Source: a virus
Taxonomy: Duplodnaviria; Caudoviricetes
Reading direction: 5' to 3' (one strand)
Virus record (IMG/VR): IMGVR_UViG_3300032250_000391
Location: 1-64,000 of that record
DNA length: 64,000 bases
Part shown: positions 47,605-64,000 of the stretch, in pieces
Layout of the letters: each line of letters begins with the position of its first letter
Numbering within the stretch: position 1 is the first letter of the stretch
The notes under the pieces: model-generated
Told to the model about the DNA's origin: nothing
Seen by the model: only the letters and a program-made list of their open reading frames with translations
Database searches by the model: none
Made by a program: the position numbers and the translations under genes

Positions 47605-47928
47605 TTAAATGTCTAACTCAAGTTGCAAGTCATCATCGTAAAAGTCTTCCATTATAGAAGTTGGTGCAACTTTGTTACTTTCAAAGTGTTGAACGCCTAA
47701 CGGTGTTAATCCAATTAGCACGCGGTTTCTGCCTCTTCTTTTTTCCATACCAAGCTTTATTGCCCACTCATGACGAATCATAGTGCGCAAAGTAAACTGA
47801 AACGCTTGCTTGGTTGTTTTGTAATCTAGTCGTTCTAAAATTTGGTCAAGGTCAACTGAAGATTTATCTTCGTTTCCCAAACTTAATACTTTCATAACAT
47901 ACAAATGCTTTTCTGATGGGTATTCCAT
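47605..47928 (-). CDS. Winged-helix DNA-binding protein
   Basis: DLDQIL...TTKQAFQFTLR...LTPLG wHTH pattern. Confidence 0.6.
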   Translation of the reverse strand: MEYPSEKHLYVMKVLSLGNEDKSSVDLDQILERLDYKTTKQAFQFTLRTMIRHEWAIKLGMEKRRGRNRVLIGLTPLGVQHFESNKVAPTSIMEDFYDDDLQLELDI

Positions 47929-47929
47929 A

Positions 47930-48808
47930 TTATGCTTTCATTCTTAAAGGCTCATTAACGCCTTGTTTATCAAACTCTAAAACTGGAATTCTTTCTGGAA
48001 TCTTGCGACCGCAATCTGGGTTTATGTACACTCCATAAAGCGGGCAAGCAAAAATTAACTGTTGTAGATTTTTAAGTAAGGCACCAATCGGCATTTCATC
48101 AACGCGCTTAGTGCCATTCAGTCTAGCGTTTCCGCTTTTCTCCATAGAAGAGTAGCGGTAGTAAAAGTCACGCAAACCCTGTACAACGTTTTCACGAACG
48201 TGATTGGGCATTGCTTCAATTTCTTCCATTACCGCAACATAATCATTTGGATTGCTTACAATGTAGCGTGTAAACAACTCCACTCCTCTTTCGTAGTTCG
48301 CAGAGCGCTTAGGCTTTGTAAACCTAAAACCCGCCTTTTGAGCAAATGGGTTAAAGCGGCTCATTGAACTTTGAAACTCTATATACCGCCAACCGCTCAT
48401 GCGACACATAATGTTTTGCATGCGATAAGCAATACCTACGCCGCGATACATGGTGTCTAACACTAAACGACTGTTGGTTCGCATGTTGGCGTTTACCCAG
48501 TCGGCTCGATGTTGATTCATCATTCGAGTATCGAGACCGCTTTGATTAGGTCGCAAATGTGCAAAAACTTCATTCCTGCCAGAACTAAGCATCTTGGATA
48601 CTGTTAACATTCCAACGCCAATAGTCTGACCGCGCAATACACAACGATAAAACGCTGGGCCTACTGGAATTTTTTCAGCTTTATAGTGAAGCTCATGCAG
48701 TAAATTCCAGTCATCTTTTGTGCCTCGTTCAACATAAATTTCTTTAAGCAGTGAAAAGGCATGATTGGAAGGCACACTGCGGCGCTCAATAAAAATATCC
48801 TCAGTCAT
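47930..48808 (-). CDS. GNAT/Mom-like acetyltransferase
   Basis: LHY, SRLVLD.MYRGVGIA (acetyl-CoA binding motif A) and MSRFNPF..KAG. Confidence 0.75.
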   Translation of the reverse strand: MTEDIFIERRSVPSNHAFSLLKEIYVERGTKDDWNLLHELHYKAEKIPVGPAFYRCVLRGQTIGVGMLTVSKMLSSGRNEVFAHLRPNQSGLDTRMMNQHRADWVNANMRTNSRLVLDTMYRGVGIAYRMQNIMCRMSGWRYIEFQSSMSRFNPFAQKAGFRFTKPKRSANYERGVELFTRYIVSNPNDYVAVMEEIEAMPNHVRENVVQGLRDFYYRYSSMEKSGNARLNGTKRVDEMPIGALLKNLQQLIFACPLYGVYINPDCGRKIPERIPVLEFDKQGVNEPLRMKA

Positions 48809-49178
48809 TATTGGTTTTGGATTGTTTTAAGTTGAGACTGTTGCGCCATTCTTTTTTGTCAAAATTACTTGCCGTTAAGAATGAATCTATTCTGTGTGTG
48901 CGCATATTTTTTTGGTATAACTTTTCAATATGATGGTCATGCACGTAAATGCTAAGTGCAATTCCAATTGCACCGCCAATTGCCGAGACAATTAGCACCA
49001 AAATATTGCCATTGACCGCATATTTAACAAATACGAACTGCGCAATGCTAATTCCTACGCTAGTCATTGCGGCTGCAAAATATTTACTTTTATGTACGTG
49101 TTTGCTTTGTAAGCCAAGTAAAAAAACCACCACAAAGCTAGAAGTAAACATTGCTAAGTAATCAATTAAATCAAACAT
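48801..49178 (-). CDS. Small 3-TM membrane protein
   Basis: Three hydrophobic segments; start probably MFDL. Confidence 0.6.
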   Translation of the reverse strand: MFDLIDYLAMFTSSFVVVFLLGLQSKHVHKSKYFAAAMTSVGISIAQFVFVKYAVNGNILVLIVSAIGGAIGIALSIYVHDHHIEKLYQKNMRTHRIDSFLTASNFDKKEWRNSLNLKQSKTNND

Positions 49179-49839
49179 TGACTGTTTCCTTGTATTCTCC
49201 ATCTGCAAGCACTTTAATTTTTAATTTTTCTCTAAAGCGCTTTTCGATGTATAAAGTTGGCGCCAAATCATCAATTAAATCTGTATGTGTCGTTGCGACA
49301 AGCAACGTAACGCCTAAAGACCTGGCGACTTTCTGAATACTGAATGAAATGGCGGCAGCAGATACTCGGTCTAAAATGGCCATAAATTCATCCGCCACCC
49401 ATACCGTTGCGTTGGACTCAATAAGCTTGGCTAAACGAAAGCGGTATTTTTGCCCGTCTGATAACTCTGCTGGCTTTCTAACAAACAAATAAGCGTCATT
49501 TAAACCAGCAATGGATAAGTATTTCATGGCTTCGTTAAGGTCTTTGCCAATTTGGTCAATAAGCGGCTTATCTTCAAACTGAACATCGTCAATATTCATG
49601 ACATTTAAACCACTAATTTTCATTTGATTAGCAAGTTCACGAAGTAGAACGGTTTTGCCCGCTCCAGATTGACCCGTAATGTAAACAACATCGCCATCAA
49701 GCACTTCTAATTCAAGCTCGTTAAAAATAACAAACTCTTTATCATCAAGACCTAGCCCAAAAGCCTCTGCAATTTCTAATACTCTGGCGCTTCGCTCCAC
49801 ACGCGTTTGAAACTTTTTATTAATTACGTATTTAGTCAT
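49171..49839 (-). CDS. Stand-alone ABC-type ATPase
   Basis: Motifs GQSGAGKT, LSDGQ, ADEF and ATTH. Confidence 0.9.
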   Translation of the reverse strand: MTKYVINKKFQTRVERSARVLEIAEAFGLGLDDKEFVIFNELELEVLDGDVVYITGQSGAGKTVLLRELANQMKISGLNVMNIDDVQFEDKPLIDQIGKDLNEAMKYLSIAGLNDAYLFVRKPAELSDGQKYRFRLAKLIESNATVWVADEFMAILDRVSAAAISFSIQKVARSLGVTLLVATTHTDLIDDLAPTLYIEKRFREKLKIKVLADGEYKETVNV

Positions 49840-49846
49840 TCGTGAC

Positions 49847-50503
49847 TTACCAACTTACAGACAAAGATTCAGCAAAGCTAACTAACGCTTCTGCGCCTTT
49901 TTTGCCTGTGCTAGATTCAACTTCTGCCATAAAGCGCGTCAAAGTGCGCTGAGAAGAGCCTGGCACCGTCTTAAAGCCAAAAACTTTGTAAAGAGGTATA
50001 TCTTTGCTGTCTACGGCTTCGGCAGTCTCTCTGCTCGATTCTGTGTGCTTCTCAAGCTCATTATCAAGGTCATCTACAAAGCCGGCTAAATCTATCTCGC
50101 CTAAATCAGCATCCATAAAGTCTAATTCTTTGGAATCAAAAATTCCTTTAAGGTCGTATTCGAGCGAGGCAAGTTCTTGTTGTAGCTTTTCAGTGTCAAT
50201 ATCTGAGATTGCTACTCGATTGTCAGCCAGTCTGGCAGCCCTAACTGCTTCAGGCGATAAATCTGCTCTGACGACCACAGGGACGGTAGCAAGACCAAGC
50301 TTGATTGCCGCCAATCGTCTTCCATGACCCTTGATGACAACGCCGTCAGCGTCAACAACAATAGGCTGGTCAAAGCCAAATTCTTTGATGGACTTTGCAA
50401 TCTTCTCAATTTGCACATTGTCGTGATTTTTCGCATTAAGTTCGTATGGTTTGACATCATCAATTTTCCAATCTAATACTTTTATAAGTGTTTCTCTTGC
50501 CAT
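49847..50503 (-). CDS. ParB/Srx N-terminal domain protein
   Basis: PYELNAKNH, FGFDQPIVVD, GHGRRLAA and RLADN motifs. Confidence 0.88.
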   Translation of the reverse strand: MARETLIKVLDWKIDDVKPYELNAKNHDNVQIEKIAKSIKEFGFDQPIVVDADGVVIKGHGRRLAAIKLGLATVPVVVRADLSPEAVRAARLADNRVAISDIDTEKLQQELASLEYDLKGIFDSKELDFMDADLGEIDLAGFVDDLDNELEKHTESSRETAEAVDSKDIPLYKVFGFKTVPGSSQRTLTRFMAEVESSTGKKGAEALVSFAESLSVSW

Positions 50504-50667
50504 TAAGCGACTCTCTTCAGTAAAAGAATTTTTTTAGAAAATAAAGCGCCTTCTGAGTAGTCATCGGCGGCGGGTTCAAATTGGTCTGCATTTTCGCAGA
50601 ACTCACATACGTCTTCGTCTTCGCCATTAAATTGGCAATAATCACATTCTTCAAATCTATCAGTCAT
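50503..50667 (-). CDS. 54-aa Cys-rich acidic protein (not in ORF track)
   Basis: MTDRFEECDYCQ...VCEFCEN...; overlaps both neighbouring ParB genes. Confidence 0.65.
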   Translation of the reverse strand: MTDRFEECDYCQFNGEDEDVCEFCENADQFEPAADDYSEGALFSKKILLLKRVA

Positions 50668-51301
50668 CGTTAGTCACCAAGTAAACAAGAGCATTTCCAG
50701 CATTCATAAGAGAATCATCGTCCATAAAACCTTGCGTTTTCATAATTGACTCAATAACCGACTGGACAGCGGCGGCATCTTCCATCGGAACTTTAAAACG
50801 CATAATTTGATGGGTTTGTACCTTTGAGCTTGTCGGCAATATAGGCAGTTCATCGGAATCCGGTAATTCGAGTTCATCGAGCGATATACTAGTGCTAGAG
50901 AATATTGAATTTAAGTCGTCGTTCGAGTAAGGCATGTATGAAGAGATATCTTCAAACTCGCCAAGCTCTTTTAAAAGTTCAGCCAATTGCAAAGTGTCAT
51001 CAATGCCGTATCTGCCGTTATCAACTAAACTAATTTCTTTCGCCTTGTCGTCAGATATTTTGCCAAGATTTATAATGGGAATCTCTTTAAAGCCCAGTCT
51101 AATTGACGACTCAACTCGGTGTTCGCCGCCTAGAATCTGTAGCGCACCATTTGCCAACTCTCGACAAATAATTGGTTTAAACATGCCAAACCGCTTAACT
51201 GAGTTGTCCAGCTTTGTTTGGTTTTCAGGGTCGACCATATTTGTATTCCAAGGATTCTTGGTTAATTTTTTAGGGTCGATGGCTAAGTTTTTGATTTCCA
51301 T
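50660..51301 (-). CDS. ParB/Srx N-terminal domain protein
   Basis: NPWNTN, FGMFKPI, GGEHR and DNGRYG motifs. Confidence 0.88.
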   Translation of the reverse strand: MEIKNLAIDPKKLTKNPWNTNMVDPENQTKLDNSVKRFGMFKPIICRELANGALQILGGEHRVESSIRLGFKEIPIINLGKISDDKAKEISLVDNGRYGIDDTLQLAELLKELGEFEDISSYMPYSNDDLNSIFSSTSISLDELELPDSDELPILPTSSKVQTHQIMRFKVPMEDAAAVQSVIESIMKTQGFMDDDSLMNAGNALVYLVTNDD

Positions 51302-54446: not shown

Positions 54447-54663
54447 CATAGTTCTACATATAAGCGTTTATTGCATGTATCACTTTTTTTGGATTTAATT
54501 GCGTATATAGAATGTATATACCTACTCATGTGTGCATTGGTCACCTATATAAGCGTTTATTACCGCTAGGTTTCTGTGGCTGTATAAGGGTCACTTTATT
54601 TAGCTAGGAAATTAGGCGCCTACCCCACCCTGTGCGGTCGCCCCTCCCTAAGAGTGACCGCTT

Positions 54664-54696
54664 GCTAAACAGTATAAACTATTTATACTGTTTAGC
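54664..54696. terminator. 15-bp perfect hairpin ending the 193-aa gene
   Basis: GCTAAACAGTATAAA-CTA-TTTATACTGTTTAGC. Confidence 0.7.
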
Positions 54697-54711
54697 GATA
54701 CTGCTTAAAAT

Positions 54712-55293
54712 TTAAGCAAAATGCACAATTTTAGCAAGACGGTCGCGCGTCGCGATATCTTTAAAAGCTTGTAATTTTGCTTTGTTGTCATAAGTGATTA
54801 AGTTAGCGTATTGTAGCATTTTGCGAGTGCTAGACGCTTGAGTGCTAGACGTCGAAGTCGCGATATGTAATTGATTTTTACGCAAGCTTAAGTCGCTATC
54901 ATTAAGCGCAATAGCTTTGCTCATACCTTTTTGTATTTGCTCATTAGTCGCGCTATCTTTAAGCAATAACATCGATGTGATGTAATTGCGCGTATATCTA
55001 TCAAGTGAGTCGATATTTTGAGATAACGTTTTTAAAAGCTTGAAATACTTGATAATTGCTTTTTGAGCAAAATAGTTTGTATTATTGTCATCTGTGATTG
55101 CGATGATTGACGCGATTGAATTAAAATCAATTTTTTCGTTATGCATAACAGTCGCAAGATGCACTGTAAATAATGATTGAGCTTGTTTTAATTCTTTAGT
55201 CATATTATCGTTTTTAGATTGTGCGATGCGTGAATCTAAAGAGTTATTGATAGCGTTGAAAATTGAGTTAATAGCTGATTGTGTTTTAGTCAT
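54712..55293 (-). CDS. 193-aa GG/CC-depleted gene (no Pro, no Trp, one Gly); candidate immediate-early regulator
   Basis: Has its own sigma70 promoter (TTTACA-16-TATAGT, 55349-55376), RBS AAGGTAG and terminator. Confidence 0.8.
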   Translation of the reverse strand: MTKTQSAINSIFNAINNSLDSRIAQSKNDNMTKELKQAQSLFTVHLATVMHNEKIDFNSIASIIAITDDNNTNYFAQKAIIKYFKLLKTLSQNIDSLDRYTRNYITSMLLLKDSATNEQIQKGMSKAIALNDSDLSLRKNQLHIATSTSSTQASSTRKMLQYANLITYDNKAKLQAFKDIATRDRLAKIVHFA

Positions 55294-55451
55294 TTTAAAT
55301 CTACCTTGTAATTAATTAATAAAAGTGTTGTTGTGTACAACAGTTATAACTATACGCTCATTTAAAAAAATGTAAATACTTTTAAGCATAAAAACACTAA
55401 AAAAAATAAAAATAAATTGCTTGACATGGTTTAAATTCTATGCGGCAAAAT

Positions 55452-55774
55452 ACGCTTAGGCAGTGCGGATGAGGAGTGTCCGCGTTTAGGCGTTGGATGA
55501 GGACGATTCGCGTTTAGGCACTCAAATGAGAATCGTCCGCATCGGCGGTAGGCATCAGCTGCCTACAAAAGCCTAGGCGGCTTTCAAGGACGCTACCCGT
55601 ACCTATAGGTCACCAGCTACCCTCACCTGTAGGTCACCAGCTGCCCATACATCCTTGGCAGTAGGAATAGATTGCTACCCATACGTCATTACACACCCAT
55701 ACACCAAGGACTGGCTGGCTACCCGCACCTATGCCCATCTATCCATAAAACAGGCATCACATAGCTACCCGTAC
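55452..55774. repeat. Repeat array: three ~29-bp TTAGGC..(G/A)ATGAG units, then GCTACCCRTAC-type repeats
   Basis: TTAGG at 55456, 55486 and 55514; GCTACCC-like copies at 55592, 55616, 55640, 55674, 55718 and 55764. Confidence 0.75.
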
Positions 55775-55883
55775 ACTCTACGGCTGGTTTTAGTGAGTAA
55801 GTGATACAAAGACCTAGGAAAAGTAAATGAACGCGTTCTAGGGCTATTACTGCAAGCCCTAGAGTATTAAATAACAGCCCTAC

Positions 55884-56129
55884 TTAAGCGAAGTGTAAGT
55901 CTGCGTAAGACCAATCGTCATAGCGTTGGCGATGTACTTTCTTGCTATTGAGGAATTTATCTGTATCGCATGCCCAATCATAGTCGTCCTCTTCAACATC
56001 AAGAATTGGCACTGCTTTAGCAATTTTAGGTTCTACTGCAAGAAAATCTACGTAGATAACGCTAGGCGGCTCTGCTAGATACTCCACTTCAACACCGTAG
56101 TTATTGGACTCGTTTAACTCTTGATTCAT
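55884..56129 (-). CDS. Acidic hypothetical protein
   Basis: RBS AGGAG and a GCC-class promoter upstream. Confidence 0.6.
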   Translation of the reverse strand: MNQELNESNNYGVEVEYLAEPPSVIYVDFLAVEPKIAKAVPILDVEEDDYDWACDTDKFLNSKKVHRQRYDDWSYADLHFA

Positions 56130-56361
56130 GATACTGCTCCTAGTAAGTGATTAAATATGTAGTGATTTGCTACAACTTCATTGTAAGCACTCAGTTTAGG
56201 CGCGTGGATGGCACTACTTAGGCAGAGTAAAAGCGATAGATAAAGGCTTAGGCGTTTAAGAATTGCGGATTGATTCCATGGCCTGCGGATGACATTAGAT
56301 AGCCTTGGCCGAGAGCCTGTGGCCTAAAAGGGAGAACCCTTTGGCCTGATACTGAAATAGC

Positions 56362-56970
56362 CTAGTTACTAATGCAGGCTCTAGTGATGATTGCCGTGCC
56401 TAGAATTACCATCATGAGCCAAAGCCAGCCTACGCCATTCTCTAGCAACTGTGAAACGCCAATGGTTAGAATAATGCCGCCTAGAACGGTTAAGGAATTG
56501 TTGTAGTTCATAGTATTACTCCTAAATAAACACCCAAGAAAATTGTTAAGTAAACGCCAATCATTAGTAAGGCGGCGCCATCGGTAAAATATCTGTTTCT
56601 CATTTTTCCTCCTAAGTCAGTAGTGACTTATCAATTAAAATAAAACTTTGGACATCACACGCTCATGAAATTTTCTTTCCCTACGTGTTCTGATTGCATG
56701 CTCAATAAGAGAGGCAATGCCAAGAAATCCGCATAAGCCTGTAATAAATACTAAAATTAAAATTAAGTTTTCCATCTTGTTTCTCCTTTTGTTTGTTTAA
56801 CCACAATTTCATTATATAGAGCGATGTCAGGCACGAGAACAGGCAGTTTAATTAAAAAGCAAGTAGCCTACGAAGTACAAAACAATCAAGGTAGGCAAAG
56901 ATACGACGATAACGTTAATTAGGGTGAAAATGGCGGTAAATAAATTGCCAACTTTGTCAAAAATATTCAA
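56362..56970 (-). CDS. Four tiny membrane-peptide ORFs: 56362-56511 (49 aa), 56508-56603 (31 aa), 56635-56775 (46 aa), 56848-56970 (40 aa, TTG start)
   Basis: Manual translation; each has a GGAG-type RBS and 1-2 hydrophobic segments. Confidence 0.65.
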
Positions 56971-57230
56971 TACATACTCCTATAGTCGTTTAACTGATGC
57001 TTCATTATATCGACAAAATTCAGGGAATTATCTTGGCAAAAAACACTGCCAAATGCCTAGGCAACTTTTAAGGCATTTTCATTCTTACTTTCCTATAGGC
57101 AACACCTTCAATTCCTAAGCCTGGCTTCATTCTTAAAAAACGCCTAATCTCTCACATAGGAGCTACCCATACAATTTTGTCACCACTCAGCCTAATATTT
57201 ATTTCATGGAAGCTAGCCGTACATCATTGA

Positions 57231-57398
57231 CTAGCCATACACGTCCATCTCCGTCTCCTCTTCCTCTTCAATTTCCTCAAGATAGTCAGGCTTATACTTG
57301 TCTTTGCGAATGTAAGTCTCCTTAAGCCGTAAGTCTTCCTCTACTCGCATACGGTATTTAGGCGTTCTTAAATCTTTGTGTATAAGTGACTGCTTCAT
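57231..57398 (-). CDS. ArfA-like 55-aa protein (not in ORF track)
   Basis: MKQSLIHKDLRTPKYRMRVEEDLRLKETYIRKDKYKPDYLEEIEEEEETEMDVYG; ungapped match to the ArfA core. Confidence 0.55.
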   Translation of the reverse strand: MKQSLIHKDLRTPKYRMRVEEDLRLKETYIRKDKYKPDYLEEIEEEEETEMDVYG

Positions 57399-57767
57399 GT
57401 GTTTAGTATAGAAAAGAAAGTTAGGGCAAGCTACAGGCGGAATAATGGCTAATGAATATATTGAGTTAATTGTTTTTAAACAAATAGAGGCTTCTGGGAG
57501 AGGAAACCTAAAACTGAAAGATAAGCCCCCCCAAACCCCCCATGCCTATAGACACGTTGACCGAAGGGTTCAAGGTATGCCATCTAGCGTTCTATTAGTA
57601 TCAATCCAAAAGCCTAGGCTTCTGTACAAGTCAAACCAACAAAACTGAAAGACAAGCCCCCAGAAAGAAAGAGAAAACTCCCTAGGCATTACATTTGGCT
57701 CTAATCAGGGCTTACACGTTGCCTGTGGCTCAATGGTTTAATGCTTCGGAAACCAAATCATGTTATT

Positions 57768-57796
57768 AGTATAAATATGGACTTTAGGTAAGTCAA
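57768..57796 (-). promoter_or_regulatory. Consensus sigma70 promoter overlapped by an operator
   Basis: TTGACT-17-TATACT; operator at 57789-57806. Confidence 0.75.
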
Positions 57797-57999
57797 TAGT
57801 GACTTATCAATTACCTAAAAATAGTTCACAACTGGTGCCATGGCAATGGCCTGCGATTACTGTCGCAGCCTAAGCCTGGTGGCCTGGCATTGGAATCTGA
57901 AACTGGCTGTAGGTGGCCTGTAGTGTGTAAGTGAAAATCTAATTAGCCTAACGATTGAAGAGAGGTTCACTCCTCACCCCCAATCACTTACATATCTGC

Positions 58000-58383
58000 C
58001 TAACCTTCTTCCTCTGTCCACTCTTTATATCTTAAGGCATCTATCTTGTTCACCATCCACATCAGTTCTTCTCTGAGGCTTTCAAACCGTTCTTTATTTT
58101 CCATGTCAATTATTGGTCTTTCATTACTGCCTGGAAACTTATAAAGCTCAATCATATCTAGGAGAATATTCTTTAAAGTAAACTTTGCGCCTACAATAAC
58201 TTGTTTGTATTCCTCATTATCAAAATGGCTGATGGCTTCTAACACTTCGTCCTCAGCCCATAGGCTTGAAATTGTGTAGCTAAATATGTTTTTGCCATCT
58301 ACAAAGTCCCTTTCTATCAGAACTCCTTCATCCTCAATGTAACGATAGGTGCCATTTTTAATTGTCTTTTTTCCACTTGCCAT
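58000..58383 (-). CDS. Early hypothetical protein
   Basis: ORF with RBS. Confidence 0.65.
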   Translation of the reverse strand: MASGKKTIKNGTYRYIEDEGVLIERDFVDGKNIFSYTISSLWAEDEVLEAISHFDNEEYKQVIVGAKFTLKNILLDMIELYKFPGSNERPIIDMENKERFESLREELMWMVNKIDALRYKEWTEEEG

Positions 58384-58433
58384 TTATTGCCCTCTTTAGC
58401 CTACGGTTTATTTATTGCCGTTGTTCTTTACTT

Positions 58434-58628
58434 TTAGTTTAGCCTTACGCCTTTTATTAAACTCAGCTCGTCATTCCTGTACTCAAGACGGCTTTCAGGA
58501 TATTCCCATTCCGAGTCCAAATCATCAATGACGATATTCCTACCGTGATTATAGACTTCAACTACTTTGCCTTTGATGTTTTGGTCTATTACTTCGACGA
58601 TATCGCCTAAGCTGAAAATATTGCTCAT
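58434..58628 (-). CDS. Small SH3/KOW-like hypothetical protein
   Basis: FSLGDIVEV..GKVVEV; RBS and GCC-class promoter. Confidence 0.55.
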   Translation of the reverse strand: MSNIFSLGDIVEVIDQNIKGKVVEVYNHGRNIVIDDLDSEWEYPESRLEYRNDELSLIKGVRLN

Positions 58629-58702
58629 GCCATCTCCTTAATTAGTTTTGTTTCGATAGTTTATTATCACAGTTAATTTCAGGCGAGAGAACCGGCACTT
58701 AA

Positions 58703-59029
58703 CTACTGCCTAGCTACCGTTTCAAAGGCTTTATTGATGTCTTTTAAATTATCGTAAGTCCAAGCATCAATAAAATCTACGCCTTCGGGCAGTTCATTAT
58801 AGGAAAAGTCCTCATCCGAAACGCAAATGCGCTCACAGGCGACGCCTTCGACATAATTGTTATACTCGTCCATTGAGCGAAAGACGTTGTAATAGCCATG
58901 CTTGTCCAAATAGACAAAGGCTATGGAATCCTTGTCCTCTACTGCCCTAGCAATTAAGAATTGTCCTACGCCGCAGTCCTCGCAATAAAGCCACTCGACT
59001 TTATCGTCAAAGTCCTTGTATGTGTTCAT
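58703..59029 (-). CDS. Early hypothetical protein
   Basis: Translationally coupled ORF. Confidence 0.6.
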   Translation of the reverse strand: MNTYKDFDDKVEWLYCEDCGVGQFLIARAVEDKDSIAFVYLDKHGYYNVFRSMDEYNNYVEGVACERICVSDEDFSYNELPEGVDFIDAWTYDNLKDINKAFETVARQ

Positions 59030-59352
59030 GCTATCTCCTTTGGAATATCAACTTCGTGTCCTAACTTATTTGCGACGTAGCACCGCATGGCGGCTATTAG
59101 TGGACTTGAGCCACAGAAAAAATCAGGCGTGTTTATGCTATTTCCAAAGGCAGCACACCATTCTTGACCTTTCCATATCTGCATGCCTTCATGCTCAATA
59201 ATTGGACCGCCTTGTGCCCAATCTTCTGTAGGCACATAGTAATCTCCGTTTTCTAAAATAATTACTTGGTCTATTTCTACATTTAGGCTTTGACACTTTG
59301 CCACAGCCCAATCAAGCGCCATGCCTGTTAGTTCTGATGTTTCAATTTTCAT
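59026..59352 (-). CDS. DUF2591/NinX-like protein
   Basis: ELTG.ALDWAVA, P.EDWAQGGPIIE and PLIAAMRC.VA motifs. Confidence 0.8.
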   Translation of the reverse strand: MKIETSELTGMALDWAVAKCQSLNVEIDQVIILENGDYYVPTEDWAQGGPIIEHEGMQIWKGQEWCAAFGNSINTPDFFCGSSPLIAAMRCYVANKLGHEVDIPKEIA

Positions 59353-59353
59353 T

Positions 59354-59683
59354 TTACTTCTCCTTTAGATAATCTTGCATTGCCTCAAAATAATTGTTCG
59401 CATCTTGCTCTAGGCTAAAAGTTAGCTTGTAGTCCAAAGCCTCGTACTGCACTTCACCGCTTGGCATTTCCTCATACTGAATTGCGATGTCTTGGCTGCT
59501 TTCCCAATACGGTGTGGCATAAACCACTTCCATGAACTCCTCTTCTGGCATTGGTCTGCACCAAAAGATTGAGCCTGTGTGTTCTTCGCTATCAATAGTC
59601 CAACCATGTAGCGATTTTCTTTGCCTTAGTAACTCTTTGAGTAGGCTATCTATGTATACTTCCAAGTCCTCTTGTGTGTTCAT
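59354..59683 (-). CDS. Acidic early hypothetical protein
   Basis: RBS and GCC-class promoter. Confidence 0.65.
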   Translation of the reverse strand: MNTQEDLEVYIDSLLKELLRQRKSLHGWTIDSEEHTGSIFWCRPMPEEEFMEVVYATPYWESSQDIAIQYEEMPSGEVQYEALDYKLTFSLEQDANNYFEAMQDYLKEK

Positions 59684-60138
59684 TTTCTCTCCTTTACTTG
59701 ATGCTTTTATTATCTCAAACAGACTTAGGGCGGTACACAGGCACTTGCTAGTTGCCTGACTTGATTTAAAGCGTTTTAAGCGTTTATTTTTTTAGCGTAT
59801 ACCGTCATATAGACTAACTTAGGTGGACGAGCTGTAGCGTTAGGTAGAGCGGTTCCTAGAGCATACTTATCGCTTGATGCATACGCAAAAAAGTGCTTGC
59901 CCTAAGTTGTATAATGCCTATGAAACGCAAACACAATTTAGGCTTCGCAAGTCATTGATTTTATTGGACAAATAAAAAGGTAGGCAAAAAAATGCCTGAA
60001 TAGACTCGGAGATGGCTAATTCAGGCTTATTTCGGGATTAAGGACTATAGCGTTTTACTGCTATATCTCATTATATACAGGGTTTTATTTATATTGCTAG
60101 GCAATGTGAATTTACGCTCCTAGGCAATGTATAGACGG

Positions 60139-60165
60139 AAAAAAGGCGGGGTCACAAGTCCCGCC
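60139..60165 (-). terminator. Intrinsic terminator
   Basis: GGCGGG..CCCGCC stem followed by T6 on the minus strand. Confidence 0.75.
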
Positions 60166-60265
60166 CTACTGCTTTTCCAACGGTAATCACTCCGTTATTT
60201 ACTTACAAGGTGGCAATTATACGATACCGCCAAAACGTTTTATTATTGTATTCCAAAAAGTGTTT

Positions 60266-60445
60266 TTATTGCAAGCCACATGCCTCTAAAAATGTGCTTG
60301 TTTGGAATGCGTAGTTGTCCTGTCTAAGTGCATACGCCACCTGCAAGACTGCATTTTTGTAGGCTTCGAGTTGTTGCTCGTTTGTCGGTCTTGCCTGCTT
60401 AACTTTTTCGGCTATTGCAATGTAGGTTTTTCTTGAAGCTGCCAT
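60266..60445 (-). CDS. Small conserved phage protein (start MAASRK)
   Basis: SRKTYIAIA...DN.AF...FLEACG; RBS AAGGAG. Confidence 0.65.
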   Translation of the reverse strand: MAASRKTYIAIAEKVKQARPTNEQQLEAYKNAVLQVAYALRQDNYAFQTSTFLEACGLQ

Positions 60446-60455
60446 AGTATTCTCC

Positions 60456-60731
60456 TTAGTAGTCGATTTCAGGAATGTTAAAACCTTTGGTCGCGGCATA
60501 CGCTTGAAGCTCGCCTACGACACCGTTTAGATAGCGAGCCTTCGCTATTATTTCACCGCGAGGCAATTCGCCATCGCAACTCAGATTTTCAGGGCTAAGT
60601 TTGGAACTCAAAGAGTTTGCCAAGCGTTTGCAGTCCTTCTCGCTCAAGTCGTAGGGATTGTAAGTAGCGTCTTTGCCAAAGATAGCGTCCCAATCGTTTT
60701 GTTGTTCGCAGTATTGGATTAAATTTCTCAT
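60456..60731 (-). CDS. Conserved phage hypothetical protein
   Basis: LSPENLSCDGE motif; RBS before MRNL. Confidence 0.7.
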   Translation of the reverse strand: MRNLIQYCEQQNDWDAIFGKDATYNPYDLSEKDCKRLANSLSSKLSPENLSCDGELPRGEIIAKARYLNGVVGELQAYAATKGFNIPEIDY

Positions 60732-60741
60732 GGTTTTCTCC

Positions 60742-61065
60742 TTATGCAATTACTGGCTTGAAGCCAAAGTTGTCGACGATGTAAAAGCCTTCGTTTTCGT
60801 CATTTTTGTTTAGCCAAATTAAATCTCCGACCGAAGTAGAGCGATAATTTTTCCTACCGCCCATCACTTCGACGCCTTCGTTTTCTGACCAATGCTCGTC
60901 AATGGAATTAGTCAAATCAAAGGCGTCAGCTAAAATTCTGTCCTTTAGCAAGTCACGATTATTAAGAAAGGCAACTGGCTCGTAATCGTTTAAGTCGACA
61001 CGCGTTGGCGTCTTGCCAAGATAACCTTCAAATTTTTTCTTTTGCATAACTATGGCTGAGTACAT
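60742..61065 (-). CDS. YodL-like protein
   Basis: RSTSVGDLI...YIVDNFGF. Confidence 0.6.
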   Translation of the reverse strand: MYSAIVMQKKKFEGYLGKTPTRVDLNDYEPVAFLNNRDLLKDRILADAFDLTNSIDEHWSENEGVEVMGGRKNYRSTSVGDLIWLNKNDENEGFYIVDNFGFKPVIA

Positions 61066-61139
61066 TTCCTTCTCCTTTATTAGTGTTGCTCTGTCGATTT
61101 AGTTATTATGACGAAGTAAGTCAGGCGTGACTAATGGCA

Positions 61140-61941
61140 CTAAGTAAATAAAGCAAGTTGCCAATCAGAGTCTTCTTTGATAGGGTCAAAGACAATTTCG
61201 AAGTCTTCGTTTGGCGGTCCAATTTCCATTGTAAAAAAGTCCTGCGCCCAATTCTGAGGCGTATAGTCGCGGTAAGCCCATAGAAGCGTGTCATAGAAAT
61301 AGCCTCTATCCTGCTCGCATGAATACATCACGGCATCTAGGACTAACTTTTTAGCCTCAGAAACGGTTATTTTGGTTTTAGGTCTACTCATGAGAGTGCC
61401 TCCTTTATTCTTTCTAAATTCACGCAGGAATAATTCATCGGATACTTTTCTTCAAATTTAGGGACGACGAGCATAGCCCATATATACGCCTGCTCCGTAT
61501 CTGTCAGTTCCGAAGGCTCGTATACGTTAGTCATGTCCATTTTCATATTTAAGCCCGCCTCTGACGAGAGAATTGGCGCCGCCCAAAGATAGTCCTCATA
61601 CGCGAAGTAGGCGTTACCGTCGTTATGATTGTAAAAAGCCTTAACAAAAGTTTTGTCAGTCATGATTTCTCCTAAAATGAGTAAGGGGCGTAATTGCGAA
61701 TTGGCGAGTCTTTGGAAAGCGATATATGCTCCTTAAACTCGTACTCAATTCCTCTGTCTTTGAGAGCGCCAATAAATAAAGAGGCGTCGCAGTCTTCCTC
61801 TAAGTAGACGTAATCGCCTCTGGCGTAAGAGTAGTAGGAAATCTTGTCATCAATTCCAAACTGCTCCAACATACGTTTCTCGACCTTGAGCCAACCATGT
61901 CCAGGGTCCGAATAAAAATCTAATTGCATTGTCATCTCCAC
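61140..61941 (-). CDS. Three small early ORFs (61140-61391, 61388-61663, 61672-61941; the last has FYSDPGHGWLKV)
   Basis: Coupled ORFs with RBSs behind a GCC-class promoter. Confidence 0.65.
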
Positions 61942-62010
61942 TCTCCTTGTGATTATTTGCTACATTTATAATTGTAGATATCCGATACAGGCGTGTAAAT
62001 CACGAATGAC

Positions 62011-62289
62011 TTACTGCCTAAGAGATGCCAATTTCACAAATCTAGGGCGCATATAATAGTTTTGCGCCTCGATGCAATTGCGGATACTGGCGGCAAACTG
62101 ATGCCTTTTGCCATCGGCATTAGCCAGCTCCATCATTGTGACTGCAATAAAGATGGCAACAAGAGGCTTTTTGTTGTGCAGATGCTCAAGGACTGCGCCT
62201 CGATTACCGTTAAGCCAACTCTCATAAAGTTCGGATATTTCCTCTTCCTCAATTTCAAACTCTGCAACTTTTTCTTTAGGCGATTTCAT
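62011..62289 (-). CDS. Hypothetical protein
   Basis: ES.LNGNR motif; overlaps the previous gene. Confidence 0.6.
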   Translation of the reverse strand: MKSPKEKVAEFEIEEEEISELYESWLNGNRGAVLEHLHNKKPLVAIFIAVTMMELANADGKRHQFAASIRNCIEAQNYYMRPRFVKLASLRQ

Positions 62290-62755
62290 GTAATTCCTCC
62301 ATCCATTCCGGTATGTTTCGATATTTCCAATGTGCGATATGTGCTTTGTGTAGCCTGTAATAAGTACGATAGGCTGTCACGGCGTCAGGATGCTTGCACT
62401 CGTCAGGCATCGCTTGTGCAAACGGTGTCATGCCAATGGGTATAGCTTTGGGTGGCGGACTCCAGATGCTTTCGATGACTGACTGACAGGCATGTCGCTT
62501 GTCGTAGCGGTAGGAATATTCTGCACACAGTTCCAAGCCCAACTCGACTAGCCACTGGTAATTTTCCTTGCTTTGCCTAGCCCAAACTGTGCAGGGATGA
62601 TTTGGATAGGCTGGCTTGTATTGAGAATAACCGCCAAGCAGATGATGGGCTGTGGACAGCATTTGTGCAGTTTCCAACGGCATTTTGACTATATGCTTGT
62701 CCAAGTGAAGCCTTGCGGCCTCAATCGGTTCGTAATCTAGGACAAAAATGTTCAT
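62276..62755 (-). CDS. Pyrimidine-dimer DNA glycosylase/endonuclease V family protein
   Basis: MNIFVLD, DKHIVKM.LE.AQMLSTA, NHPCTVW and F.QAMPD motifs. Confidence 0.85.
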   Translation of the reverse strand: MNIFVLDYEPIEAARLHLDKHIVKMPLETAQMLSTAHHLLGGYSQYKPAYPNHPCTVWARQSKENYQWLVELGLELCAEYSYRYDKRHACQSVIESIWSPPPKAIPIGMTPFAQAMPDECKHPDAVTAYRTYYRLHKAHIAHWKYRNIPEWMEELHEIA

Positions 62756-63481
62756 TGAAATTCGACTCCAACAAAGAAGCCCATCATGATTAAGGCGGCA
62801 GATACTTTTCTTGGTAATTCGTATACGCCATCGTAATCTCGTAGGGTGACTTGCGTTTCGTCAATCACACTTGTTTCATCCTCAAACCACAAGCCACCGC
62901 CTGTGCCAGTTTTTTGATGCTCAAAGAATCCATAATTAGCCTGTGAGTCAACTTGCACGTCCCAATCGCCAACTGTTAGTTTTTTGTCAAAGTTATATGC
63001 CATTTTGTTTCTCCTTGTAATTGATTAACCACAATTACATTTTAAAGATTAGATTCAGGCGCGTCGGGTGGCAGTTTCGCTAAATCGTAGGAATCACAGA
63101 TAGGTCATCGTCGCTTGTAAAGAGAGCGCCTGCGTTATTACCTTCATCGTCTTGGGACGAAAAAATATGCGAGCCATCGCTAAAGAAAATGACCAAAGAC
63201 CTTTGATACCAGCCTAAGTTGTCCATTTCGTCGCTTGTTAAATAGCGAACTGAGGCAACTGTTTTGCCGACTAGAAACGCAGAGGCAGACGCCTCCCAAG
63301 ATTTAATTAATTTGTCCAAAATTTACTCCTTTATATACATACGAACTGTGTCGCCAAAACCTAGCAACTTAAGGGCAAAAGCATCTGCTTCTGCCTGTGA
63401 GTCAAACTCTTCCTCACGCCACTTGCGAAGCTCTGTCCATGAATTTTTGGAATACTCAACTACATAATAAACTTTGGTCAT
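62752..63481 (-). CDS. Three small early ORFs (62752-63003, 63080-63319, 63323-63481)
   Basis: RBSs and coupled starts/stops; the last ORF (52 aa) was translated manually. Confidence 0.6.
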
Positions 63482-63690
63482 CTCATTGCTCCTTTATGTG
63501 AACTGTTTAAGCCTAGCAATAAGCTAGGGTCTGTTACTAAAATATAATTGCTTTTGGGCATCGGCACGACACAATGCTTTATTTTCCTAGCATTACTTTC
63601 GCCACAATCCATGCAGACCTTGTAGCCTAGCAAGCCTCGTCTGCCATCTACCGCCTCACCGCATTGCCTACAGTCAAACGACTCACTCAT
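63478..63690 (-). CDS. C4 zinc-finger protein (TraR/DksA-like)
   Basis: CRQCGE...R...GY..CMDC. Confidence 0.55.
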   Translation of the reverse strand: MSESFDCRQCGEAVDGRRGLLGYKVCMDCGESNARKIKHCVVPMPKSNYILVTDPSLLLGLNSSHKGAMR

Positions 63691-63863
63691 AACTCCTCCC
63701 ATCTAGCCATCATTTCGCCTAAATCTACTACTGGCGCGTCATCGCTGACGTTGTACCAGAGGCAATAGGGGTCGTTGTTTTGCTTTAAATTTGCTTGGCT
63801 AACATTCTGCTGCCAATCAATTTTTTCTTGCTCTGCCTGCCATACCGCTTTTACTCTACCCAT
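63687..63863 (-). CDS. Hypothetical protein (start MGRVK)
   Basis: RBS GAGGAG. Confidence 0.55.
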   Translation of the reverse strand: MGRVKAVWQAEQEKIDWQQNVSQANLKQNNDPYCLWYNVSDDAPVVDLGEMMARWEEL

Positions 63864-64000
63864 AACTGACTCCTCCTCTTTCGTAGCCAACTACATTAAA
63901 ATCGCCATGATTGCCAATGATTGAAAGATTAGGGTTGTCATCAAAGTAATAGAAAATGGCATCGTCATCCTCGCCTTCAACCCCGTTCCACTCGCCAATA

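Follow-up and report, generated by a model that had tools for sequence, protein, structure and literature searches.

A GGV-free transcription unit in a temperate phage and its relatives, and the candidate winged-helix regulator encoded within it

In a group of temperate phages and phage-plasmids, one short DNA word has been banned from a single gene over long evolutionary times. The word is GG followed by A, C, or G (GGV; BCC on the complementary strand), and in the genome considered here it is absent from both strands of a 798-bp island (54646–55444), where about 42 occurrences would be expected. The selection acts directly on double-stranded DNA, and neither protein composition, codon bias, mutation pressure, nor recent import accounts for the purge. 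The ban was strong enough to strip proline and tryptophan from the encoded protein and to fix the glycine codon as GGT. We propose, with a probability of about one half, that the island is the transcription unit of a winged-helix regulator whose recognised word is GGV and whose own gene avoids the core of the half-site. The exact word, the codon rules, the occurrence of the trait in cultured Acinetobacter plasmids, and the BCC-WW-GGV palindrome arrays that co-vary with the recognition helix are new here; no published description of such a purge was found in a literature search, although one may exist all the same.

The window analysed, a stretch of 64,000 nucleotides, is part of a 96,102-bp viral record (IMG/VR IMGVR_UViG_3300032250_000391) that represents a siphovirus-type temperate phage. 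The record encodes structural proteins (tape-measure protein, J-like tail protein, portal, terminase, and capsid), proteins of replication and metabolism (PolIII alpha, primase, DnaB, ligase, RNR, ThyX, RecA, and SbcCD), CobT/CobS-like proteins, and a sigma factor, with genes for a tyrosine integrase and a CI-like repressor at the right end. Its major capsid protein is 64% identical to that of Stenotrophomonas phages, 57% to that of Pseudomonas phage nickie, and 54.5% to that of Salmonella phage SSU5, and on these sequence identities the record is placed in the SSU5/Nickievirus/AB-group supergroup of phages and phage-plasmids. The core genes of the supergroup and their synteny were confirmed (capsid, terminase, ParB-ABC module, helicase, PolIII alpha, and CobT/CobS-like genes), and the Acinetobacter baumannii phage-plasmid pABA-1fe1 has the same gene order. 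No plasmid replication gene was identified in this record. Several relatives are classed as proviruses, and the records compared are proviral or circularly assembled.

Extent and composition of the island

Sites of GGV/BCC occur genome-wide at a density of 5.3 per 100 bp, for which a gap of 798 bp has a ln P of about -42; no other gap in the 96-kb genome exceeds 163 bp, and the island is thus unique in it. The initial annotation had noticed the locus by its dinucleotides, claiming three GG/CC, all in GGT/ACC context, where a few dozen would be expected. The recount bears this out: 54661–55427 (767 bp) contains three GG/CC against 38.3 expected from local base composition, located at 54741, 54926, and 55304 only and each in GGT/ACC context. 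These survivors are a Shine-Dalgarno sequence (AAGGT), the sole glycine codon (GGT), and a GAC|CGT codon junction. They leave GG/CC-free gaps of 378, 185, 124, and 83 bp, when the longest such gap elsewhere in the 96,102-bp record is 108 bp. The borders are as sharp as had been claimed, since the 150 bp on either side hold GGV at 1.4 and 2.0 times the locus mean.

The depletion is not a general avoidance of G+C or of palindromes, because CGCG (7 copies, 0.44 expected), GCGC (4 copies, 0.44 expected), and TCGA (3 copies, 2.2 expected) occur in the island at or above expectation, in agreement with the abundance reported for them earlier. Taken together, CGCG and GCGC are roughly tenfold above expectation. 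The restriction-type palindromes AAGCTT (three copies) and ATCGAT (one copy of the three in the genome) are kept as well, and the GA dinucleotide is not avoided. The G+C content of the island is 34%, compared to 41% in its surroundings; in the relatives, it is 33–52% against 46–61%. Three general causes of unusual composition were rejected: selection for Z-DNA or alternating purine-pyrimidine tracts, as AA/TT are abundant; silencing of the H-NS type, as CG and GC steps are enriched; and avoidance of primase sites, for which no benefit is evident.

The island comprises a complete transcription unit on the minus strand. Its gene (54712–55293) encodes the 193-amino-acid protein. A promoter scan found the sigma-70-type promoter that had been predicted (TTTACA-16-TATAGT, 55349–55376, minus strand), matching the consensus at 10 of 12 positions and free of GG/CC. 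The Shine-Dalgarno sequence AAGGT (55303–55307, minus strand), 9 nt 5' of the ATG, has the tolerated GGT in place of GGA. At the predicted transcription start, an inverted repeat TGTTG-TGTA-CAACA (55329–55342) was read by eye from the sequence; it is possibly an operator for another regulator. Downstream of the stop codon, an AT-rich hairpin devoid of GG/CC is predicted by folding (54664–54696), with about -19 kcal/mol for the region 54650–54715. Of the terminator claimed by the initial annotation, the GG/CC-free hairpin is therefore real; however, it has no U-tract and was not called by the terminator scan, and it is best described as a putative terminator. The right border is formed by a GGV-dense non-coding block (55452–55780) with direct repeats of 24–25 nt and one inverted repeat of 20 nt, and the first GCCTAGGC lies within this block, at 55571.

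The avoided word and its codon rules

Pooled counts over 15 purged homologues define the word and agree with the earlier proposal that GG(A/C/G) is avoided and GGT/ACC tolerated. GGG, GGC, and GGA occur at 0.05–0.09 of background, and GGT/ACC at 0.76; CGGT even reaches 1.46. Sense and antisense depletion are balanced in the purged genes, and because both strands are depleted equally, the reader of GGV acts on double-stranded DNA. The rule is visible in the codons. Glycine is encoded by GGT in 51 of 52 cases in the purged genes, compared to 26% in other ORFs of the same loci. An A stands before 16 of the 17 proline codons (16% elsewhere), and both tryptophan codons of the purged genes (2/2) are followed by T.

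Amino-acid composition alone does not explain the depletion. In 20,000 trials of synonymous resampling with this genome's own codon usage, the gene for the 193-amino-acid protein contained 19.4 ± 4.1 GG/CC and never fewer than 6, against the 2 observed. The same holds for synonymous sites in relatives; for example, counts of 14, 20, and 23 were found where 90 (minimum 68), 99, and 108, respectively, would be expected.

The 193-amino-acid protein

Translation confirms that the protein has neither proline nor tryptophan and a single glycine, as stated in the initial annotation; cysteine is absent too. It matches two families of phage proteins of unknown function, PHROG 4202 (E = 1.3e-07) and PHROG 9272 (E = 2.6e-07), over residues 8–166 and 55–169, and homologues from related loci score 1e-14 to 1e-20 with them. 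Searches of Pfam, a PDB sequence search, and Foldseek against PDB returned no family for it, and the ESM Atlas gave unnamed clusters only.

The fold was approached with an AlphaFold2 model of high confidence (pLDDT 96.9), in which a helical N-terminal domain is followed by a C-terminal domain with helices at 132–140 and 146–162 and strands at 166–169 and 174–177. Residues 83–193 superimpose on the winged-helix domains of RosR, MarR, ArsR, Fur, and ORC with Z of 7–8.4 and rmsd of 2–3.5 Å over 71–96 residues (VIA-align). Z values in this range are common; they back the fold and are silent on function. Based on the model, the product is a winged-helix DNA-binding protein of an uncharacterised family.

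An exhaustive, profile-free search for the family gave 39 relatives, mostly at 25–33% identity; the nearest homologues (P0002–P0004) are 68–80% identical. The stretch S-T-S/A-S-T-Q-A/x-S-S-T-R, corresponding to the predicted recognition helix, is conserved in the family. Direct searches gave no homologue, whether viral, metagenome, and genome contigs were scanned with the protein or the alignment as query or a phage collection was searched by tblastn.

Conservation of the purge

Relatives were collected through the neighbouring helicase gene, which gave 43 related viral contigs, and through a plasmid collection. A homologue of the family lies on the same strand, 2–5 kb downstream of the helicase, in 19 of the 43 contigs (profile search) and in pABA-1fe1. 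Of these 20 loci, 15 have a single strong GGV-poor segment, and it covers the homologue, extending over 0.4–2.3 kb with GGV at 3–16% of the locus mean; for the viral contigs alone the count is 14 of 19, and one locus (L032) has a second, short segment. The 150-bp flanks follow the same rule as in the window, with median GGV 1.7–1.9 times the locus mean. Depletion at both synonymous and intergenic sites, which had been named as a check, is conserved in distant homologues. Since the purged proteins share only 25–33% identity, the trait is maintained and not merely inherited.

The purge holds even at 57–61% GC. In the complete genomes G2 and G3 (110–113 kb), the island is again unique, and in G3 (113 kb, 61% GC) 2,295 bp pass without any GGC/GCC. 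The cultured phage-plasmid pABA-1fe1 carries the same gene, with the product WP_103270953.1, in the same synteny within a GGV-free gap of 1,154 bp, and the family is carried by 153 Acinetobacter plasmids. The trait is graded: G0, G2, G3, and pABA-1fe1 have a strong island, G1 has a moderate one, and those of G6 and G7 are weak. There is none in G5, G8, G9, nickie, or BUCTxx99. Homologues with normal GG/CC had been named as evidence against the idea; most homologues are purged, and the copy of the gene in G5 is unpurged. Both the gene and the island are missing from Pseudomonas phage nickie and Stenotrophomonas phage BUCTxx99. A Klebsiella SSU5-like element shows a partial island in the same place, and homology of its ORF is not demonstrable (hhalign probability 0.2). 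At two loci (L022 and L023), the island also includes, behind the regulator gene, small acidic cargo genes that are not homologous to each other.

Palindrome arrays beside the island

The region on the promoter side of the island is rich in the very word that the island lacks. Six of the seven CCTAGG palindromes of the genome are found within 4.6 kb on this side (55572–60124), at 55572, 55813, 57056, 57613, 57681, and 60119, and the half-sites TAGGC/GCCTA are enriched 4.7-fold in the wider early region (55445–64000). Over 11 loci, 83 copies of CCTAGG fall within 2.5 kb of the gene on its promoter side, compared to 18 in all other sequence. The arrays often start 50–150 bp from the border of the island, and some sites are 13 bp apart. 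Four other purged loci have CCATGG instead, in 8–16 copies and 16- to 105-fold enriched. T stands directly after the GG in 6 of 101 CCTAGG and in none of 58 CCATGG sites, and the CC has an A before it in 6 and 4 of them, respectively. As T rarely follows GG in these palindromes, the enriched site can be written BCC-WW-GGV, and the banned word is the core of its half-site.

The predicted recognition helix changes with the site. It reads T-(A/S)-S-(T/S)-Q in all loci with CCTAGG and T-A-D-T-Q in three of the four with CCATGG; the exception, L010, has CCATGG sites yet no Asp in the helix. The unpurged gene of G5 (L039) has an altered helix, G-T-A-G-S-Q, and no such palindromes beside it. The co-variation spans about two to three independent lineages. 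As far as sequence can tell, these adjoining arrays agree with the suggestion that GCC/CCT boxes in the early region are where the product acts, and the 193-amino-acid protein is a candidate for binding them; the purged loci L012 and L031 have no clear CC-WW-GG array. The arrays could also belong to another protein, such as the phage sigma factor or the CI-like repressor.

Proposed avoidance of its own word by a regulator

The word banned from the gene fills the adjoining arrays of binding sites, so the gene probably encodes the regulator that reads GGV. In the model that we favour, the protein would bind the early region, loaded with BCC-WW-GGV palindromes and single half-sites, and its own promoter, coding sequence, end hairpin, and co-transcribed cargo genes would be kept free of GGV/BCC. 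Lacking these words, the unit would offer the product nothing to sit on, block, spread into, or mis-fire from, and host sigma-70 RNA polymerase could as a result read the gene whatever the state of the rest of the phage. Harm from binding within its own gene would be the reason for the purge. The protein may either silence early genes in lysogeny or activate early promoters devoid of a -35 element after infection. The GGV-dense flanks of 150 bp would suit an abrupt change from a bound to an unbound domain. The model is supported by a purge that follows the gene across loci, by arrays that mirror it, by the common flank rule, by a helix that changes with the site, and by the fold of the protein.

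Ordinary sequence-specific regulators have no need to clear their own genes of a 3-bp core, and self-avoidance would consequently require an unusual mode of binding, such as binding of half-sites, spreading, or roadblocking. It is also worth noticing that a 6-bp palindrome is small for two winged-helix domains. The data would then point to a DNA-binding mode of very low specificity that extends over kilobases and is undescribed for phage regulators.

A broader statement, somewhat doubtful, is made more tentatively: in a superfamily of phages and phage-plasmids, to which plasmids of about 110 kb that are common in Acinetobacter baumannii belong, a small winged-helix reader of GGV may coat or license the early domain and split the genome into a word-rich controlled domain and a word-free master gene. 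The lysis/lysogeny switch would then be chromatin-like, written in dinucleotide content and paid for by the amino-acid alphabet of the regulator. In the alternative form of the statement, an enzyme of an unknown class may mark phage DNA at GGV. From sequence alone, the purge makes it possible to locate a master regulator, together with the domain that it targets, in these temperate phages and phage-plasmids, a large group that is poorly understood and has members in clinical Acinetobacter and Klebsiella.

Alternative explanations

The initial annotation had proposed as the reader of the word either a DNA modification or a DNA-bound protein. The evidence favours the DNA-bound protein, and no known modification enzyme was found that would set a covalent mark. 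In the covalent version, which we regard as unlikely, GGV/BCC in the phage's own DNA would carry a mark, set by the phage, that impedes host RNA polymerase, and the unmarkable unit would be read first after injection. DNA-modifying enzymes typically recognise short degenerate words of the GGV kind, and the unit has a good sigma-70 promoter. A phage sigma gene is present in the island-bearing genomes and is missing precisely from the island-less G5 and G9, and phage SPO1 pairs its own sigma factor with modified DNA. However, DpdA, QueC, and FolE were not found in the genome, and DpdA was not found in five relatives either; searches with PF01702, PF06508, and PF01227 (E ≤ 0.1) picked up nothing here and did give matches in control genomes, and PF01702 is absent from five complete relatives. 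No N6/N4 or C5 methylase was found in the genome, and no domain of a modification type was detected among the approximately 45 larger ORFs scanned. The 7-deazaguanine systems that depend on DpdA are similar in that a short guanine-centred word of phage DNA is concerned, as in phage CAjan, in which preQ0 is placed at GA and GGC (PMC7544227); in the present island, GA is not avoided. Furthermore, GGCC, CCGG, GGWCC, and CCWGG are strongly avoided genome-wide (GGCC, 54 against 293 expected; GATC, 4 against 215 expected), and the avoidance of GGCC and CCGG suggests that GG/CC sites are unshielded and exposed to restriction. Nor does a covalent mark predict BCC-WW-GGV arrays with matching changes of the helix.

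The ParB/ABC/GNAT module, to which the initial annotation had linked the mark, did not hold as a cause of the purge: it occurs in each of the nine complete or near-complete relatives that were compared, with or without the island, including the island-less G5, G8, and G9. The sigma factor gene co-varies with the island, as does a gene (genome 68798–69259) for a 153-amino-acid protein that has no recognisable family.

The phage sigma factor might be concerned in another way. The unit would then avoid its promoter determinants, as GG/CC boxes (GCC...CCT) would turn any AT-rich -10-like hexamer into an active promoter, and both strands would be kept silent to the phage holoenzyme. The antisense strand of the island has six -10/-35-like matches, and the sigma gene is present in G0–G3, G6, G7, and pABA-1fe1 and absent from G5 and G9. 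However, this distribution covers nine genomes only and is phylogenetically confounded, and G6 and G7 carry the sigma gene yet have weak islands. Dodging promoters does not require the removal of every GGV, and the co-variation of helix and palindrome points to the winged-helix protein. We consider this explanation improbable.

Escape from a host defence that requires GG/CC, such as the CC PAM of type I-F systems, the NGG PAM of Cas9, or restriction, is very improbable. The unit would in this case be the first-entering DNA or an anti-defence locus, and the cargo genes of L022 and L023 do resemble anti-defence operons. The first-step-transfer DNA of phage T5 is a precedent: it lacks EcoRI sites and lies at the physical end of the genome. 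It is, like the island, local, sharply bounded, and motif-free, and it carries the first-expressed genes. However, T5 avoids a host restriction site, and here a three-letter word is avoided, with restriction-type palindromes such as AAGCTT, ATCGAT, and CGCG retained. In species carrying type I CRISPR-Cas, about 18% of spacers match phage-plasmid-annotated genes (PMC10038342). For the type I-F PAM, only positions -2 and -1 matter, and even NC is functional (PMC7296934). ACC would therefore still serve as an I-F PAM, and a PAM cannot explain why GGT/ACC is tolerated. Cuts elsewhere in the genome would kill the phage anyway, so a local purge gains little, and the trait is constant across hosts of 41 to 61% GC.

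The G+C content of the island, lower than that of its surroundings, agrees with a footprint of mutation, such as CC-specific deamination under heavy transcription, or with a unit recently imported from a donor of odd composition, but this explanation is scarcely credible: such deamination can neither turn GGC into GGT nor set A before proline codons, the untranscribed promoter is purged as well, the depletion is strand-symmetric, and recent import is ruled out by a fixed syntenic place across lineages whose proteins are 25–33% identical.

Comparison with known systems

In anti-CRISPR/Aca-type operons, a strong promoter active early in infection is combined with a conserved HTH autoregulator and with small cargo genes that vary. 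The L022 and L023 islands are comparable, each being one strongly promoted unit in which small, variable acidic genes accompany a conserved gene for a DNA-binding protein; in the unit of this window, however, the regulator stands alone, and no known Acr or Aca family was matched.

The activators of the T4 MotA type are early proteins of about 200 amino acids, expressed from a sigma-70 promoter, which act on short boxes of middle promoters that lack a -35 element. The 193-amino-acid protein is alike in its size, its sigma-70 promoter, its modelled arrangement of a helical N-terminal and a DNA-binding C-terminal domain, and the putative boxes in the early region. There is no match in sequence or fold, however, with a predicted winged helix here and a "double wing" in MotA, and silencing is here as possible as activation. 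We know of no purge of the motA gene.

The closest precedents for a word kept out of a gene concern RNA. The mqsR/mqsA messages are free of GCU, the triplet cut by the toxin MqsR, and ACA-poor messages are similarly related to MazF. In those systems, as is proposed for the island, a three-letter word is excluded so that expression is immune to its recogniser. They differ in that the word is read in RNA, on one strand; in the island both DNA strands are purged, together with promoter and hairpin, and the presumed reader is a DNA-binding protein rather than a nuclease.

The island and its surroundings in related genomes

In two related viral contigs with 60% GC (loci L022 and L023), the stretch depleted of GGV/BCC trinucleotides (GG followed by A, C or G, on either strand) is not confined to the winged-helix regulator gene and extends across a cargo gene as well. 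This second gene, small, acidic and located behind the regulator on the minus strand (L022:12242-12826 and L023:11782-12222), is dissimilar between the two contigs; neither copy matched a PHROG family, and both may represent anti-defence cargo. At L022, the left border of the island is abutted by a gene for an HNH/NUMOD-type homing endonuclease (L022:11126-11653, plus strand). A third related contig encodes a second regulator paralogue within the CCTAGG-rich early region (L032:13924-14526, minus strand), whose recognition helix is canonical, yet its GG/CC content is normal (75 observed vs 61 expected).

The right border of the island in the present genome is directly adjoined by a non-coding block (window 55452-55780) in which three repeats of 24 nt, two of 25 nt, and one 20-nt inverted repeat are present. 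Candidate functions for this block are operator field, origin, and boundary element. A partial GGV-poor island was found at the syntenic position of the SSU5-like Klebsiella phage GArcari-2022a (L105:12300-13250), with 5-8 GGV sites per 400 bp vs a median of 32. The ORF that this partial island carries, 216 aa long and encoded on the opposite strand, has no demonstrable homology to the regulator family.

Other genes of the phage genome

A 225-aa phage sigma-70-family factor is encoded on the minus strand at genome positions 89276-89953 (L004:5276-5953), between CobS-like and PolIII alpha genes, and it is precisely absent from the matching position in G5 and G9, the complete relatives without a GGV-free island. 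The DNA polymerase III alpha subunit gene (genome 85323-88745, L004:1323-4745, minus strand) specifies a uracil-DNA-glycosylase-superfamily domain (residues 970-1099) fused to the C-terminus of the protein.

The operon located upstream of the terminase genes (window 47605-51301, minus strand) encodes ParB, a Cys-rich 54-aa protein, ParB/Srx, an ABC-type ATPase, a membrane protein, and two further proteins, one of 292 aa carrying a YRGVGIA motif and one of 107 aa. Conservation of the operon extends to 9/9 genomes compared, and a link to the GGV depletion is not supported.

Restriction-type words

Across the whole genome (window 1-64000, L003 and L004), GATC occurs in 4 copies vs ~215 expected and GGCC in 54 vs 293; CCGG, GGACC, CCAGG, GAGCTC, AGTACT, ATCGAT, and CTGCAG are likewise avoided. 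This genome-wide avoidance, extreme for GATC and GGCC, is consistent with heavy restriction pressure on unmodified DNA.
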